A stretch of 64,000 nt of DNA, from sequence record NC_054905.1. One strand, given 5' to 3'. Shown piece by piece: positions 9,830 to 57,541 of this stretch. The notes beneath the pieces were generated by a model, which saw only the letters and a program-made list of their open reading frames with translations, was not told the DNA's origin and ran no database searches. A program made the translations under genes and the position numbers. This stretch comes from Enterobacteria phage Kha5h. The first letter of the stretch is position 1. The number at the start of each line of letters is the position of its first letter.

Positions 9830-10030
9830 ATGGTACAAAAATTAATGGCACTTGTTAATGCCATAAAAGGTAATAAAAAGCGTATAGCTTTTACTATTTC
9901 TGCTATGGTAGGAATTTTACTCTGGAACTTTATTCTATCACCTGTTGCAATTGCGCATGGTATTAATATTCCAGTAGTTACTCTTGATACATTTGTAGAT
10001 TTAGCATTTGCTTTAGTTGGGTTGATTTAA
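9830..10030 (+). CDS. small hydrophobic protein (66 aa), plus strand
   Basis: Strong SD AAGGAGG 4 nt before ATG; predicted TM segments; stop overlaps gene 61 stop (TTAA). Confidence 0.45.
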   Translation: MVQKLMALVNAIKGNKKRIAFTISAMVGILLWNFILSPVAIAHGINIPVVTLDTFVDLAFALVGLI

Positions 10031-11055
10031 ATCTTAGCATATTTAGATAGCCGCATTTTAGCCATCAACCCCTGGGCAATATTATTTTTCATATATTCCA
10101 TAATTTGTTCAGGGGTTGCACCTTCCTTTCTAATCATATCATTGACATCTTTTGATTTCCAGGGAGATTTATCCCAAAACATAACCCTTTCTCCTGCATC
10201 AACTAATTTAGTCATTCGCTTAATAGTGTCAGGATGACGAGGTTCATTATCTAAAACCCACACACGTCTATCTTTAAATGGAACAACTTCTAGGTCTAAT
10301 TGACCACCCGTAATAGCTATACCATTTTCAATAAAAAGTGAATCTATAGGTCCTTCTAGAACATATACATCACCATCTTTAACTCGTTCGACTCCATAGA
10401 TTTTTGTTGCTTCAGGATAAGCTTTGATGGTGATATATTTTTGAGGAGCATCTTTCTTTAATGCACGTCCTTGAAAAGACTCAGCTTTTCCATTAGCATT
10501 ATAAATTGGAATAACAAGACGAGGCTCAGAAATTTCCTTTTTGTATGTTCCTGGTGCTATGCTATTAACTAATTTAGGCCATTCGGTTGTAAACCAAAGA
10601 TATTTCCATTTATCCTTTGGAATACAACGAGCTTTTACATATTTTATAATTGCATGGTCTTCCGCCAGTTTATCTAATCGAACACATGACGGAAGAGATT
10701 TAATTATTTTCTTCTCAGGTTGTTTAGGAAGTTCTTTAGGTTTTTCTACTGGACGACTTTTACCTTTTTCTTTTCTTATTTCAAAGATATACTCACGATA
10801 TAAATCAGGTTCAAACTCCTTTAAATATATTCCGATTGGTGCATGATAGTTACAGTTATAACAATGAATATTTCCTTCATTATTATCACCATAATACCAT
10901 CCACGAGCTTTATTCTGGTCGGTTTTTGAATCTCCACAAACAGGACATCTAAACCGTAATTTAAAAGTTGAACTATTATTTACTTGTGTGAATTTAGGTA
11001 AATGAGCTAATGCACGGTATGCAAACTCATTATCAATCCAAGGTATTGATGACAT
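10027..11055 (-). CDS. 61: DNA primase gp61
   Basis: 342 aa; zinc ribbon CPVCGDSK...CYNCNYH; recognised as T4 gp61. Confidence 0.9.
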   Translation of the reverse strand: MSSIPWIDNEFAYRALAHLPKFTQVNNSSTFKLRFRCPVCGDSKTDQNKARGWYYGDNNEGNIHCYNCNYHAPIGIYLKEFEPDLYREYIFEIRKEKGKSRPVEKPKELPKQPEKKIIKSLPSCVRLDKLAEDHAIIKYVKARCIPKDKWKYLWFTTEWPKLVNSIAPGTYKKEISEPRLVIPIYNANGKAESFQGRALKKDAPQKYITIKAYPEATKIYGVERVKDGDVYVLEGPIDSLFIENGIAITGGQLDLEVVPFKDRRVWVLDNEPRHPDTIKRMTKLVDAGERVMFWDKSPWKSKDVNDMIRKEGATPEQIMEYMKNNIAQGLMAKMRLSKYAKI

Positions 11056-11057
11056 TT

Positions 11058-11222
11058 TTACTCTTCTTTTTCTTTAGATTCCTCTTTTTTCTTTTTAGGA
11101 ATCTGCTCAGGGCCTTTATTTACTACAGCGCCTGACGTTGTTCCAGTAGAGATATTTTCAGGATTACCACCTGAATCTCCAGCGACCATATCTTCTTTAA
11201 TAAATTCTTTATATGTTTTCAT
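11058..11222 (-). CDS. small ORF (54 aa) with internal-protein-like N-terminus
   Basis: MKTYKEFIKE start resembles capsid targeting sequence; Lys/Glu-rich tail; 2 nt from gene 61 ATG. Confidence 0.4.
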   Translation of the reverse strand: MKTYKEFIKEDMVAGDSGGNPENISTGTTSGAVVNKGPEQIPKKKKEESKEKEE

Positions 11223-11268
11223 ATTAACCTCTATTCATAAAAGCATTAAAAATTTGGTCATCAATAGA
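11216..11268. repeat. direct repeat copy A (3' end of 118-aa gene)
   Basis: CATATTAACCT(C)TATTCATAAAAGCATTAAAAATTTGGTCATCAATAGA. Confidence 0.8.
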
Positions 11269-11580
11269 TGGAATAGCAACCTTTTCGGCATCATTTAGCA
11301 AATCATTAATTTCATCAGATAGCATAACACATGTGCCTTTATTTCCTGTAATTGTTACTGCACAATTACGAACGTTTTCTTTATCAAATTTTAGGTTAAT
11401 ATTTTCGTAGTGAAAATCCTTTAATGCCGAATATATCTTTAAAATGAAATTGTCTTTTACTACAATAAACCCAACTTCACTATTAAAACGTGGTTCATGG
11501 AAACTGTAATAAACCTTTTCATCTATAAAATCGTATGAAATTTTTTCCATTTTTAAATATGAAAATTCAGAACTATACAT
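11224..11580 (-). CDS. hypothetical protein (118 aa)
   Basis: Track ORF; C-terminal 12 residues shared with next gene. Confidence 0.55.
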   Translation of the reverse strand: MYSSEFSYLKMEKISYDFIDEKVYYSFHEPRFNSEVGFIVVKDNFILKIYSALKDFHYENINLKFDKENVRNCAVTITGNKGTCVMLSDEINDLLNDAEKVAIPSIDDQIFNAFMNRG

Positions 11581-11626
11581 ATTAACCTTTATTCATAAAA
11601 GCATTAAAAATTTGGTCATCAATAGA
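11574..11626. repeat. direct repeat copy B (3' end of 208-aa gene)
   Basis: One mismatch to copy A over ~50 bp. Confidence 0.8.
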
Positions 11627-12208
11627 AACATTTACTTTAGACTGTTTTTCAGATGGCAATTCATATCCACATATTACAATTTTATGATCAATATTAAAAT
11701 ACACAGAAGCAATATGATTAATGATATTTTCAGTGAAGTCTAAATCGACATCAATATCTTTTTGACCAAAGCCCAAAGGATAAATAATGCGAGTAATTCG
11801 ATTATCTTTAACAAAGATTCCACCGACATACTCTGTACTGCGTTTAAAGTCTACACGCCGACGAAATGAAAAATATTCAGGCTCTCTATGAGCTCGGCTC
11901 ATAGGACACAACGAGTAACTAGAATAAGAGATGTCAAATCCTACACCTTCGATATGAGCCAAAGTGTTATGATTAAACCAATTATAATCGTACGCCAAAT
12001 CCATTAGATTATAATATGTAAAAGGCACCGGATTAACATCATTAGTCACAAGCATATAATTAGCAACTGCTATAATTTCATTGTTTTTAACGAATACAAA
12101 CCGTGATTGATGCGAATGACCTGGACCCGCGTTTTCACGATTAATGATATAACACTGGGCACCTTTATATTTGTATGTATCTTTGCACTTGTGCATTTGA
12201 TAGAGCAT
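11582..12208 (-). CDS. hypothetical protein (208 aa)
   Basis: Track ORF; C-terminus SIDDQIFNAFMNKG duplicated in neighbour. Confidence 0.55.
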   Translation of the reverse strand: MLYQMHKCKDTYKYKGAQCYIINRENAGPGHSHQSRFVFVKNNEIIAVANYMLVTNDVNPVPFTYYNLMDLAYDYNWFNHNTLAHIEGVGFDISYSSYSLCPMSRAHREPEYFSFRRRVDFKRSTEYVGGIFVKDNRITRIIYPLGFGQKDIDVDLDFTENIINHIASVYFNIDHKIVICGYELPSEKQSKVNVSIDDQIFNAFMNKG

Positions 12209-12501
12209 TATTCACCTACCACTTCAGCGATGATATTTTTGTTATTAAAGTTTTTATCGCAATACAGAACATAATTATACTGCATTACACCACCAGACTT
12301 AAGTTGTTTTTGCACTTCAGCTTTCATTTCAGGACGATCGCGCTCAACGATATTCATAATATCCGCTTCAATTTGAGTTTCAACTTCAGTCTGATCTGCA
12401 GTCATAGACCATTCACACAAATCTTTATCATATCCTGCCATAGCAGGCTGAGCAGCGCAAGAAGCTAAAGCAAAAATTGTGGCAAAGATAAATTTTTTCA
12501 T
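12208..12501 (-). CDS. putative lipoprotein (97 aa)
   Basis: Signal peptide with lipobox LASC; early promoter 12530-12559. Confidence 0.55.
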   Translation of the reverse strand: MKKFIFATIFALASCAAQPAMAGYDKDLCEWSMTADQTEVETQIEADIMNIVERDRPEMKAEVQKQLKSGGVMQYNYVLYCDKNFNNKNIIAEVVGE

Positions 12502-12529
12502 GATAATCTCCTCAGTAGTTTATGTTTAT

Positions 12530-12559
12530 ATAGTATCTCAATTTCCAACAAAAGTAAAC
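12530..12559 (-). promoter_or_regulatory. early promoter (GTTTAC-N18-TACTAT)
   Basis: Upstream of lipoprotein gene 12208..12501. Confidence 0.55.
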
Positions 12560-12561
12560 AG

Positions 12562-12819
12562 CTATTTTAAAACTTCTGCGTAATCACATGTTACAAACTG
12601 TTTCTCTAGCTTAACGATTTTACGAAAATACCTTTTATACTGACGAATCTGCCTCTTCGTAGGACGTACAGCAAACTTAATAAATTCCACTAGACCAAAT
12701 GGAGGACTTTCTTCTGCTGGAATATCTAACACCAATTCCCACGTATCTGCAATAAGTGCTTTGAATTGCGTATTTTTCCTGACGTTATACGGAGTAGGTT
12801 TAAATAAAACAATATGCAT
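12562..12819 (-). CDS. hypothetical protein (85 aa from MHIVLF)
   Basis: SD GAGGA 4 nt before ATG at 12819, 1 nt after dmd stop; track ORF is longer. Confidence 0.45.
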   Translation of the reverse strand: MHIVLFKPTPYNVRKNTQFKALIADTWELVLDIPAEESPPFGLVEFIKFAVRPTKRQIRQYKRYFRKIVKLEKQFVTCDYAEVLK

Positions 12820-12820
12820 A

Positions 12821-13003
12821 TTATCCTCGGCAATCCACTTCGCACACTTTCTTGTCATCAATGAAAGCTTTAACTAATGCTTTATTAACTTCAGCATACT
12901 GAGTAGTAGCCCATTGAACGTCATCTTTCATCATTGTGGTTTCTTTAGTAAACATGCTTTCATTCTTAAACCACCCCATAAAAACTACCTTTACCAATTC
13001 CAT
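12821..13003 (-). CDS. dmd: Dmd, antitoxin against host RnlA/LsoA RNases
   Basis: 60 aa MELVKVVFMGWFKNESMFTKE..., recognised as T4 Dmd. Confidence 0.8.
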   Translation of the reverse strand: MELVKVVFMGWFKNESMFTKETTMMKDDVQWATTQYAEVNKALVKAFIDDKKVCEVDCRG

Positions 13004-13032
13004 AACAATCTCCTCATTTAACCAACAAGACT

Positions 13033-13062
13033 ACTATACCATAGTCTCGTCAGCTTGTAAAC
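13033..13062 (-). promoter_or_regulatory. early promoter (GTTTAC-N18-TATAGT) for dmd
   Basis: -35 overlaps gene 41 stop codon. Confidence 0.55.
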
Positions 13063-14489
13063 TAAAATTTTAATTCATTCGCCAAAGCATCTAACTGAGC
13101 TCGAGTCGATTCGTTTCTTTGATAGCGATTCTGTTCAGCCTGAATCTGTTGTGAACCTGCTACCTCACTCACTTCAGTTGGAGTAGAATCTTGTTCAATT
13201 TCTACCCATTTCTGATTTCCCTTTTGAACACCCATCAAAAACTTATTCCACTTATTCTTATCGCCATATCGTGATTTGATTTGCTTAATGAGTTGTTGTT
13301 CAGCAGCTGCTAGCTCCTCGGTTTCAATGACCGCAAGCATAAAATCAGCTGTTGCTGGAAGACCAGCAGATTCTGCAATATCGCTCATGTTAACATCAGA
13401 AGAGTCCCAAGCTTGTTTACCGACCTGTGCTGCAGTCCAAAGAACAGTTTCGGTTTCAACAGCCAGAGCACGCAATTCCTCTGCAATAGCTTTAACAGTT
13501 GTGTAACTATTTTCTGAATAAACTCTGATGCGGCAAGATTTACAAATACCTAGATAGTCGACAATAATGATTGTTGGAACAAAATTCTTTTTGAGCTTTA
13601 ATTCATTTAAAAGTGATCGAAATGTATTAGCATCTGCTCCACCAGTAGGGTACTGTTTAACGATTAAACGACCAAGAGTAGATTTCTCACGCCATTTTTC
13701 CATTTTTCCTTTATACTCGGCGTAAGAAATATGTCCATCATCAATATCGTCAAGAGAAACATCGAGCATATTAGCATCAATACGTTTAGCGCAGACTTCT
13801 TCTGCCATTTCCATGGAGATATAAAGAACGTTATGACCAAGCTGCAAATAATCTGCTGCTAATGAACAAAGTCCTAATGATTTACCAACGTTAACGCCAG
13901 CCATTAAAACGTTCAGTGTTCCAGTCTCAGCTCCGCCTTTAGTAATTTTGTTTAGAATTCTGAGTTTAAATGGAACCTTACGAGCTTTATTCATATAAGA
14001 TAGCCAACGCGCTTCGTAGTCATCCATCCAATCATGACCAACGTAACTATCAAATGAAATTGATAATGCTTGGCGCATGATGTCAGGAATAGCACCTACA
14101 TCTGGCATTTTCTTATTTCGTTTTTCCGGAGGAAGCTCAGCATTAGTTTGAATTTCGATTATTTTAGACGTAGCATTAAACATCGCCCTTTGCTGAACAT
14201 ATTTTTCTGTTTCTTTTACTAACCAACTGTGGTCTTCCGGAGAATCAGCTAGTTTTGAAATAAGTGTTTTTACACCAGAATATTCTGTTTCAGTAAATGA
14301 ACTATTTTCTAATGCAACATTTAACGCATTAATAGATGGAACGCTATGATACTCATTGACATGAGATTTAATTAATTTGAATGTATTTTTAGCTGGACCA
14401 CTTTCAAAATATTCTGAATCCATATATGGCCAAACTTTTGAAAAATAAGCTTGATCAAATATGAGATGAGAAAGAATAATTTCTACCAC
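13062..14489 (-). CDS. 41: replicative DNA helicase gp41
   Basis: 475 aa; DnaB-family Walker A GVNVGKS. Confidence 0.95.
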   Translation of the reverse strand: MVEIILSHLIFDQAYFSKVWPYMDSEYFESGPAKNTFKLIKSHVNEYHSVPSINALNVALENSSFTETEYSGVKTLISKLADSPEDHSWLVKETEKYVQQRAMFNATSKIIEIQTNAELPPEKRNKKMPDVGAIPDIMRQALSISFDSYVGHDWMDDYEARWLSYMNKARKVPFKLRILNKITKGGAETGTLNVLMAGVNVGKSLGLCSLAADYLQLGHNVLYISMEMAEEVCAKRIDANMLDVSLDDIDDGHISYAEYKGKMEKWREKSTLGRLIVKQYPTGGADANTFRSLLNELKLKKNFVPTIIIVDYLGICKSCRIRVYSENSYTTVKAIAEELRALAVETETVLWTAAQVGKQAWDSSDVNMSDIAESAGLPATADFMLAVIETEELAAAEQQLIKQIKSRYGDKNKWNKFLMGVQKGNQKWVEIEQDSTPTEVSEVAGSQQIQAEQNRYQRNESTRAQLDALANELKF

Positions 14490-49937: not shown

Positions 49938-49979
49938 ATATACCCCTTTAGTTAGATAAACCTATTTATAACTTTTGCA

Positions 49980-55342: not shown

Positions 55343-55816
55343 TTATTTGAATGATTTGACGTACTGAATAGAACCTTTACTATTCACGAAAGCGATTTTA
55401 CCATTTTTATTATACATGGTAGCAGTACGCTGATAGCCATAAGTTTGTTTACCAGATTGATAACCAACTAATGCGAAATTATCTTCACCCATTTTATTCT
55501 GTTTAGCGCGAATACGTTCATGACCGTGTGCCATAAGAACCTTAGCATCACCAGTTGAAATTGATCTACGAGTTTTTTCATCTTCAACTGTATTAACAAA
55601 GTCGTCAAATGAATCAAATTTAGCATGGGATTTATTATACAGTTTTCCATCTACTGCATAATTATATCCCTGTACATCCATCTCAACTTCTGTACCATCA
55701 TCCAATACAGCAGTGATTTTTTGACCTTTTTTAAATTTCAAAAGATCAGTAAAAGATTCAGCAATAATTTGAGAATTAATAGCTGCTTCAGTGATAAATT
55801 CTTGATATGTTTTCAT
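55343..55816 (-). CDS. internal-protein-like packaged protein
   Basis: 157 aa; N-terminus MKTYQEFITEA matches capsid targeting sequence of T4 internal proteins. Confidence 0.55.
   Translation of the reverse strand: MKTYQEFITEAAINSQIIAESFTDLLKFKKGQKITAVLDDGTEVEMDVQGYNYAVDGKLYNKSHAKFDSFDDFVNTVEDEKTRRSISTGDAKVLMAHGHERIRAKQNKMGEDNFALVGYQSGKQTYGYQRTATMYNKNGKIAFVNSKGSIQYVKSFK

Positions 55817-56300: not shown

Positions 56301-57541
<1,241 letters not shown>

Follow-up and report, generated by a model that had tools for sequence, protein, structure and literature searches.

Gene 61.1 of the T4-like phages is represented, in a 64,000-nucleotide stretch of DNA from Enterobacteria phage Kha5h (NC_054905.1; hereafter the window), by a 54-codon open reading frame (ORF) located on the minus strand at 11058..11222. 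Gene 61.1 is already known; the new part is that its product was found to combine a leader resembling the capsid-targeting sequence (CTS) of internal head proteins with a copy of the maturation junction of the capsid protein gp23. As judged from sequence comparison, residues 7-38 of the 61.1 product are homologous to gp23 residues 62-93, i.e., to the gp21 cleavage site and the so-called N-fist. We tentatively propose, at somewhat less than an even chance, that 61.1 encodes a disordered mimic of the gp23 N-terminus, which would be recognized by the scaffolding core and by gp21, would be cut after Glu10, and of which a fraction would enter proheads, a grading that is kept low because every step after sequence recognition is one that we infer. 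The literature searched was found to contain no discussion of the function of 61.1, nor any description of its CTS-like leader or of a relationship by homology with the junction and N-fist of gp23, the only prior hint of a link with gp23 being automated 'major capsid' labels on homologues.

The N-fist copy is encoded by codons 11-38 (DMVAGDSGGNPENISTGTTSGAVVNKGP; 11109..11192, minus strand), which correspond to gp23 residues 66-91/93 and were recognized by BLASTP, by a hidden Markov model (HMM) of the module and by PDB-wide searches. BLASTP against gp23 of Shigella phage Sf22 (Tequatrovirus) aligned residues 2-38 of 61.1 with gp23 residues 57-93 without gaps (43% identity, E=1e-8), thereby placing Glu10 of 61.1 opposite gp23 Glu65. 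The latter is the residue after which gp21 cuts gp23, residues 1-65 being removed on maturation; consistent with this, the region upstream of the junction is missing from the PDB chains of mature gp23* (5VF3, 8T9R). Furthermore, the junction motif of gp23, L-x-E/A-E-(I/V)-(G/A)-G-D...GP (where the slash following E marks the cut), is present in 61.1. The module HMM, comprising 32 columns (P4-P1 plus 28 residues), was searched against 5,402 six-frame segments and matched only members of the 61.1 family and, with E-values of 3e-10 to 1e-8, gp23 of phages RB49, JC221, JM10 and Sf22; beyond gp23, the best match had an E-value of 0.6-0.9. Among 177,635 distinct PDB sequences, T4 gp23 was the best match in a single-sequence search (E=0.0085), and a profile of the 61.1 family returned gp23 chains only (E=2.6e-8). 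The gp23 paralogue gp24, which has no N-fist, gave no match to the 61.1 module in these searches. As the module and profile searches match only gp23 and the family, and not gp24, the similarity is considered to represent specific homology; a low-complexity artefact was also considered and rejected, the HMM and the PDB profile matching nothing outside these two sets of proteins.

The N-fist comprises residues 66-91 of gp23* (PMC7136217); it is disordered inside the unexpanded prohead, and after expansion is found on the outer surface, where it contacts four subunits and helps to form the Soc site (PMC9958956, PMC9546572, PMC7136217). The wider region of gp23 residues 66-105 is likewise described as being inside the unexpanded prohead, disordered and probably touching the core (PMC9546572). 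The 61.1 product itself cannot be a capsid subunit, since it shares at most ~35 residues with gp23, has no Pfam hit and does not possess an HK97 body.

In GenBank and UniRef, many 61.1 homologues of 50-165 aa carry the label 'major capsid protein' or 'major capsid domain-containing protein', and one is labelled 'methyltransferase'. The records concerned include those of PEC04, UPEC01, Roth77, BL02, PF-CE2 and Phynn, as well as the UniRef names of three of the relatives compared here (P0002, P0023 and P0044). The capsid labels are mis-annotations, as they were drawn from a similarity to gp23 of ~30 residues. A different annotation matter was observed for phage JM10 (L013, PP400777.1; 15885-17408), whose gp23 is nearly identical to that of T4: this gp23 gene extends to where the linear record stops and lacks annotation as a coding sequence (CDS), a record-spanning misc_feature being given in place of the gp23 CDS, yet the N-terminal part of gp23 is encoded (MTTIKTKAQLVDKW...). 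The Gol region is a 29-residue stretch within the first quarter of gp23; it probably lies just downstream of gp23 residue 93 and is thus assumed not to overlap the 61.1 module, so that a link with Gol/Lit was set aside.

At the level of the gene, the 61.1 ORF (ATG start, 54 codons and a TAA stop codon) encodes the 54-aa product MKTYKEFIKEDMVAGDSGGNPENISTGTTSGAVVNKGPEQIPKKKKEESKEKEE, with a computed molecular weight of 5901 Da (5.9 kDa), and is the orthologue of T4 gene 61.1 (T4p034), with which it shares 52 of 54 residues, the differences being Y4F and T26I; of the six nucleotide differences between the two genes, four are synonymous. The segment of the window that carries 61.1 is 100% identical to phage Sf22, where the same ORF is annotated as gp206, 'similar to T4 gp61.1', and the phrog_1823 profile matches the ORF over residues 1-54 (profile positions 1-54, E=7e-34). 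The gene lies within the 41-61 interval, directly upstream of and on the same strand as primase gene 61 (10027-11055), while a 118-aa ORF (11224-11580) flanks it on the other side. Its stop codon is 2 nt before the ATG of gene 61, and the stop codon of the 118-aa ORF (TAA at 11224-11226) is 1 nt before its own ATG. A Shine-Dalgarno sequence, GAGG, was read from the sequence 5 nt upstream of the 61.1 ATG (11228..11231, minus strand); as it sits within the final codons of the 118-aa gene that precedes 61.1, translational coupling is likely. A tblastn search with 61.1 identified relatives in 1,431 phage records. No Pfam match to the product and no Rfam match in window positions 10000-13100 was obtained at E<=0.1, and sigma-70-like promoter sites did not exceed shuffled expectation. 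A preliminary description of this DNA, made without database searches, had pointed to an ORF filling the gap between gene 61 and the 118-aa gene, and this ORF is confirmed as a real, already annotated T4-type gene under long-term protein-level conservation. The ortholog comparison which that description had suggested was carried out and shows the reading frame to be kept in T4, in Sf22 and in distant T4-like phages.

The position between genes 41 and 61 is retained in RB49 (58 aa), KP15 (162 aa), Aeromonas phage 65.2 (146 aa) and Vibrio phage VH7D (159 aa), and this synteny was observed in the genera Krischvirus, Slopekvirus, Ishigurovirus and Schizotequatrovirus as well as in one metagenomic T4-like contig. 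Long forms of the protein (phrog_2086, ~155 aa) were identified in 519 phage records, among them that of Mosigvirus JM10, and consist of an N-domain of ~105 residues, followed by the 61.1 module and a basic tail. The module that is common to short and long forms may be written as aliphatic-x-E, (D/E/A)MVAGD(S/A)GG....IAsG.TtGAVtN.GP and a basic tail. In an alignment of 50 sequences, which spans genera whose remaining sequence has fully diverged, six positions do not vary (G15, D16, G19, I24, G27 and G31), and seven more (E10, V13, A14, G18, T29, G37 and P38) are conserved in at least 90% of the sequences. Across 133 family members, Glu occupies P1 in ~95% and I, L, M or V occupies P3 in 98%, with either 10 or ~110 residues upstream. 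Three long forms contain YLTE/AEVAGD, YIKE/AEVAGD and LLGE/AEIAGD (slashes as above), i.e., the gp23 junction itself. As the module is located at the C-terminal end of a ~155-aa protein in many genera, its placement at the N-terminus is a derived state of the T-even and RB49-type phages, the RB49 protein starting with MIGFKQFVEE. One relative of 251 aa (P0143), which keeps the 41-61 synteny, carries one I/L-x-E site before and another after the module, the latter within an FKQFVE.LE cassette, and to judge from this arrangement looks like a polyprotein.

AlphaFold2 (AF2) confidently models the N-domain of the long form as a helical bundle (predicted local distance difference test score (pLDDT) ~90) and the C-terminal module as disordered (pLDDT below 50). 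The N-domain gave no Pfam hit, its fold matched nothing in the PDB at Z>=5, and a BFVD search returned family members only. Its family comprises 2,003 clusters at 50% identity with varied C-terminal extensions, and one distant relative adjoins the small subunit of ribonucleotide reductase (RNR); the loci behind this family include P0096 (model mfaf23c225df2), L010:2658-3533 and L015:6001-6756.

In 61.1 of the window, the first ten codons (11193..11222, minus strand) specify MKTYKEFIKE, a CTS-like leader that ends in I-K-E, and a gp21 cut is predicted from the I/L-x-E motif to occur after Glu10 (between 11193 and 11192, minus strand). Eight of these ten residues are identical to MKTYQEFITE, the leader of a 157-aa IPIII-like internal head protein encoded in the window (55343-55816, minus strand; phrog_3155, E=1e-101), and the first 30 coding nucleotides of the two genes are identical at 26 positions. 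When all six frames of the window were scanned for ATG ORFs that begin with the pattern M[KR][TS][YF].[ED][FL][ILV].E, only three were found, i.e., 61.1 and two internal head protein genes, the second of which encodes a 93-aa protein with a CTS leader (56301-56582, minus strand; phrog_3499, E=1e-46). The three share 7-8 of 11 N-terminal residues in all pairings. IPIII and IPII of T4 are 193 and 100 aa in length and hence differ from the 157 and 93 aa of the window; internal-protein loci are hypervariable, and such size differences are in keeping with this.

According to a review of the work of Mullaney and Black (PMC9026906), the first ten residues of IPIII are enough for the encapsidation of foreign proteins, targeting resting chiefly on positions 4 and 7 (Tyr and Phe) and processing on positions 8 and 10, where Asp at position 10 blocks cleavage. 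The preference of gp21 is I/L-x-E, and a disordered loop in the cytoplasm can serve as its substrate (PMC12991175). As 61.1 carries Y4, F7, I8 and E10, i.e., the residues mapped for CTS targeting and processing (with F4 in T4 61.1), the statement in the preliminary description that MKTYKEFIKE matches the internal-protein targeting motif was correct at sequence level, and the resemblance is, by these comparisons, more than chance. Given that ten CTS residues suffice for packaging, some packaging of 61.1 and a cut at Glu10 would be reasonable to expect. Taken as a whole, however, the preliminary interpretation was supported in part only; the resemblance extends past the CTS, to gp23 residues 62-93. 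The gp23 propeptide ends in AQAFGSFLTE (Sf22 gp23 residues 56-65; L002:2215-2244), which presents Phe, Phe, Leu and Glu at the equivalents of CTS positions 4, 7, 8 and 10, and because of this match the CTS, the end of the gp23 propeptide and the 61.1 leader seem to be versions of a single recognition element. The internal-protein CTS may thus have arisen as a copy of this propeptide end, an idea that was not found stated in the literature searched. Recurrent N-termini were also sought over 50-100 kb of RB49 as candidates for a lineage-specific CTS, and nothing beyond gp24 was found.

The remainder of the product has the Gly/Ser-rich middle and Lys/Glu-rich tail that had been described earlier. 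Codons 39-54 (EQIPKKKKEESKEKEE; 11061..11108, minus strand) form a charged tail with a Lys run, of which only the basic character, and not the sequence, is conserved across the family, the tails averaging 14 aa with 50% K+R. Within it, codons 43-48 contain an A-rich run (AAAAAGAAAAAAGAGGA; 11082..11098, minus strand) at which T6-type relatives (P0002 and P0004; 62 aa) are frameshifted, their longer and strongly basic tail KKKKRNLKKKKSKNVINTLD overlapping the start of gene 61; to judge from these relatives, the run is a frameshift hotspot. The 61.1 product has no predicted fold, as AF2 returns a pLDDT of 65 and a predicted template modeling score of 0.24, and I-K-E10 is situated within the segment concerned. 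The product is accordingly predicted to be disordered.

Combining these elements, we envisage that 61.1 would be made from the early polycistronic 41-61 message and would be recognized by the scaffolding core and gp21 through determinants that it appears to share with the N-terminal region of gp23 and with internal-protein leaders. A fraction might be carried into proheads, provided that the early-made protein persists, and gp21 would cut after Glu10, either in the prohead or in the cytoplasm. The cut would release a peptide of 44 aa that mimics gp23* at its N-terminus, and for which DMVAGDSGGNPENIS(T/I)GTTSGAVVNK is the predicted semi-tryptic peptide starting at Asp11. Downstream, this peptide may compete for or cap binding sites of the gp23 N-terminus, or it may travel with the DNA. 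In this scheme 61.1 remains unusual in that its cargo copies the new N-terminus of the capsid protein, in that it is an early gene of the replication cluster, and in that it has a widespread long form.

A number of observations weigh against a head-associated mimic. In a time-resolved multi-omics study of T4, the 61.1 transcript is classed as early and its protein was undetected, while 61.2, sp, 61.4 and dmd are early as RNA and as protein, and ipII and ipIII are early as RNA and late as protein (PMC9697503 supplement). No late promoter, TATAAATA, was found upstream of 61.1 on the minus strand before position 49963; two such promoters (57081-57088 and 57094-57101, minus strand) are located ~500 bp upstream of the internal-protein genes of the window. 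A mass-spectrometry study of T4 heads, which reported 13 gp21 sites in nine head proteins, makes no mention of 61.1, and the near-atomic T4 head papers (PMC9546572, PMC7136217) contain no mentions of 'unassigned', 'unidentified' or 'extra density'. The retention of 61.1 within the replication cluster over very long evolutionary distances is also unusual for a head component. At the cleavage site, six to seven of the 133 family members have Asp at P1, which blocks T4 CTS processing (PMC9026906); covariation at P1 was considered and rejected, the 61.1-like protein of JC221 having Asp where its gp23 keeps Glu. Moreover, 61.1 and the N-fist of gp23 from the same phage show no covariation among the only three gp23 lineages compared (T4/Sf22/JM10, RB49 and JC221), with 12-18 of 28 identities in every pairing and no preference for the phage's own gp23. 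Concerted evolution of the two genes was therefore dismissed as unsupported, own-phage pairings in these three lineages showing no excess identity, and ongoing gene conversion is not indicated; the two segments seem to have been held to a common motif independently. In Aeromonas phage 65.2, a further lineage considered for this comparison, gp23 was not found within 110-160 kb of the genome. Finally, the predicted mature peptide (residues 11-54) of the T4/Sf22 type has a net charge of -2 and an isoelectric point (pI) of 5.0, although that of the T6 type has +6 and a pI of 10 and most long forms are basic. The packaged and injected peptide of the preliminary description is consequently not borne out by the early RNA, the undetected protein, the missing late promoter and the absence of 61.1 from reported processed head proteins, and its mature part is acidic where internal proteins are basic.

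A rival explanation, which we regard as unlikely yet deserving of serious weight, is that 61.1 acts in the cytoplasm as a mimic or decoy of the gp23 N-terminus that is never packaged and engages a host or phage factor which normally sees gp23 or gp21 activity. It might do so as a preferred competing substrate that blunts the CD-NTase tripwires of the cyclic oligonucleotide-based antiphage signaling system (CBASS), or by occupying GroEL/gp31, EF-Tu/Lit or another capsid sensor, and would then count as a further anti-defense gene of its region. Gene 61.1 is located in the early dmd-tifA-sp-adfA block, a proposed anti-toxin-antitoxin (anti-TA) island of which other genes have been called 'attractive anti-toxin candidates' (PMC9391042), its neighbors being dmd (anti-RnlA), tifA (61.4, anti-ToxN) and adfA (61.2, anti-DarT), with Pfam hits to AdfA and Dmd. 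Its early transcript fits such a role, as does its dispensability on the laboratory host, which is a feature of accessory counter-defense genes and is indicated by a CRISPRi-ART screen of T4 in which 61.1 knock-down was 'Not Fit' (score -0.84, p=0.93; PMC11879866 supplement). It is also known that gp21 cuts the disordered LPE loop of a cytoplasmic CD-NTase and so triggers CBASS (PMC12991175), that the gp23 N-terminus directs fusion proteins to GroEL, and that ~100 N-terminal gp23 residues stabilize EF-Tu binding. However, the position of 61.1 is kept even in T4-like phages of Vibrio and Aeromonas without dmd, tifA and adfA, which looks like a core function, and a peptide that imitates a trigger ought to switch a sensor on, not off; a literature search returned no phenotype data on neutralization of a host defense or toxin by 61.1. 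A distinctly less likely explanation is that 61.1 is a replication-module accessory which acts with the helicase-primase through the helical N-domain of the long form and a DNA-binding Lys-rich tail, the gp23-like stretch being an ancient linear motif or a protease-sensitive linker that serves as an off-switch late in infection. This is consistent with the strict 41-61 synteny across distant genera, with early polycistronic expression in an interval where no terminator-like site was found on the coding strand between genes 41 and 61, with the N-domain relative beside the RNR small subunit, and with the lack of lineage covariation with gp23. Yet the T-even and RB49-type phages discarded the N-domain only and kept the gp23-like module and the leader, which indicates that the module itself carries the conserved function, and the motif was found in no protein other than gp23. 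The knock-down of 61.1 without fitness cost argues in the same direction, although gene 61 itself was also 'Not Fit' in that screen (PMC11879866 supplement).

That 61.1 is a classical internal protein, as the preliminary description would have it if taken literally, with many copies packaged via the CTS, processed, injected with the DNA and active in the next host, is improbable. The CTS match with all four mapped residues speaks for it, and internal proteins are likewise dispensable in the laboratory and have early-class RNA in the same T4 dataset. Against this, there is no late promoter near 61.1, the protein is unreported in virion mass spectrometry, and the mature peptide of the T4/Sf22 type is acidic and disordered; an unfolded peptide of 4.6 kDa would probably escape through the 14-17 Å capsomer openings used by scaffold fragments. 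Moreover, the family is not hypervariable, its conserved part being the gp23-like segment and not a cargo domain. It is very improbable that 61.1 has no function as a protein and is a spacer or translational-coupling device for the primase, or the decaying remnant of a long form. Although its tight coupling to its neighbors, the undetected protein, the tolerance of the tail to frameshifts and the neutral knock-down would all be explained in this way, the peptide is conserved with invariant residues from phages of Enterobacteria to those of Vibrio and Aeromonas.

Returning to the mimic of the gp23 N-terminus, a more speculative extension, which we consider quite improbable as it stands, is that 61.1 and the long forms constitute a previously unrecognized class of 'capsid-junction mimics', i.e., early, disordered copies of the protease site and N-fist to which gp21 would respond as to a sacrificial or competing substrate, or which would act as a sensor of this protease. 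If so, 61.1 could shield the phage from gp21-triggered tripwires such as CBASS CD-NTase loops, or alternatively might couple the end of replication to head maturation, and substrate mimicry of the phage's own capsid protein would constitute a regulatory or counter-defense device. In more general terms, 61.1 is still a 'hypothetical' T4 gene though conserved in >1,000 T4-like genomes, and its recognition as a free-standing copy of the gp23 junction makes it a testable object. If it is processed or packaged, CTS-type head-targeted products would reach beyond the hypervariable internal-protein loci, and the CTS would in essence be the gp23 propeptide end from P10 to P1. Action in the cytoplasm, on the other hand, would make 61.1 a candidate for modulating events that depend on gp21, among them the CBASS immunity recently described as protease-triggered. 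On a practical level, hundreds of database entries of the family are mislabeled 'major capsid protein'.

Next to 61.1, the 118-aa ORF (11224-11580, minus strand) matches positions 113-211 of the PF23813 profile and thus represents a truncated paralogue of 61.2/AdfA (anti-DarT). T4 does not have this ORF, its 61.1 and 61.2 being directly adjacent. The ORF is bracketed by a 49-nt direct repeat (11220-11268 and 11578-11626; 98% identical, spacing 358 nt), each copy of which contains the final 12 codons of the gene upstream (...SIDDQIFNAFMN[RK]G), a stop codon, a ribosome-binding site (RBS) and an ATG. From this arrangement, the 118-aa ORF looks like a partial tandem duplication or an insertion that used a shared gene-end/RBS cassette.

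Among known systems, gp23 (5VF3, 6UZC, 7VS5 and others) is homologous to 61.1 over 32-37 residues, which align without gaps and bring the cleavage Glu of the two proteins into register, both segments being disordered when unassembled. Unlike gp23, which has ~500 residues of which only 59-94 align, the 54-aa 61.1 protein is without an HK97-fold body, has SGG or AGG where gp23 has HGY, and continues after the GP motif with a Lys-rich tail instead of the N-arm. With the internal head proteins (IPI-III, Alt) it has in common a ten-residue leader, MKT(Y/F)xEF(I/L)xE, which ends in an I/L-x-E gp21 site, and a non-essential role in the laboratory. It differs from them in that its gene lies 44 kb away, in the early replication cluster and without a late promoter, in that its cargo is a 44-aa disordered gp23-derived peptide rather than a folded basic protein, in that it has never been reported in virions, and in that the motif is internal in other genera, where it follows a 105-aa domain. 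The long-form proteins (KP15_24, JM10, 65.2 and VH7D) possess the same C-terminal module in the same place between genes 41 and 61, but carry a helical N-domain where 61.1 of the window has its ten-residue CTS-like leader. Such long forms resemble the head proteins of SPN3US (gp50, gp53 and gp54) and phiKZ, in which an N-terminal part of 100-130 residues, removed by proteases similar to T4 gp21, is followed by a Glu-specific cleavage motif and a retained part (PMC5694885); the likeness is one of architecture only, those proteins being proven virion components encoded with late genes, which 61.1 proteins are not. Finally, dmd, tifA (61.4) and adfA (61.2) belong to the same early transcription unit as 61.1 and are similarly small and dispensable in the laboratory; 61.1, however, has no sequence relationship with them, is far more widely conserved, and stays beside the primase gene even where the anti-TA island is absent.

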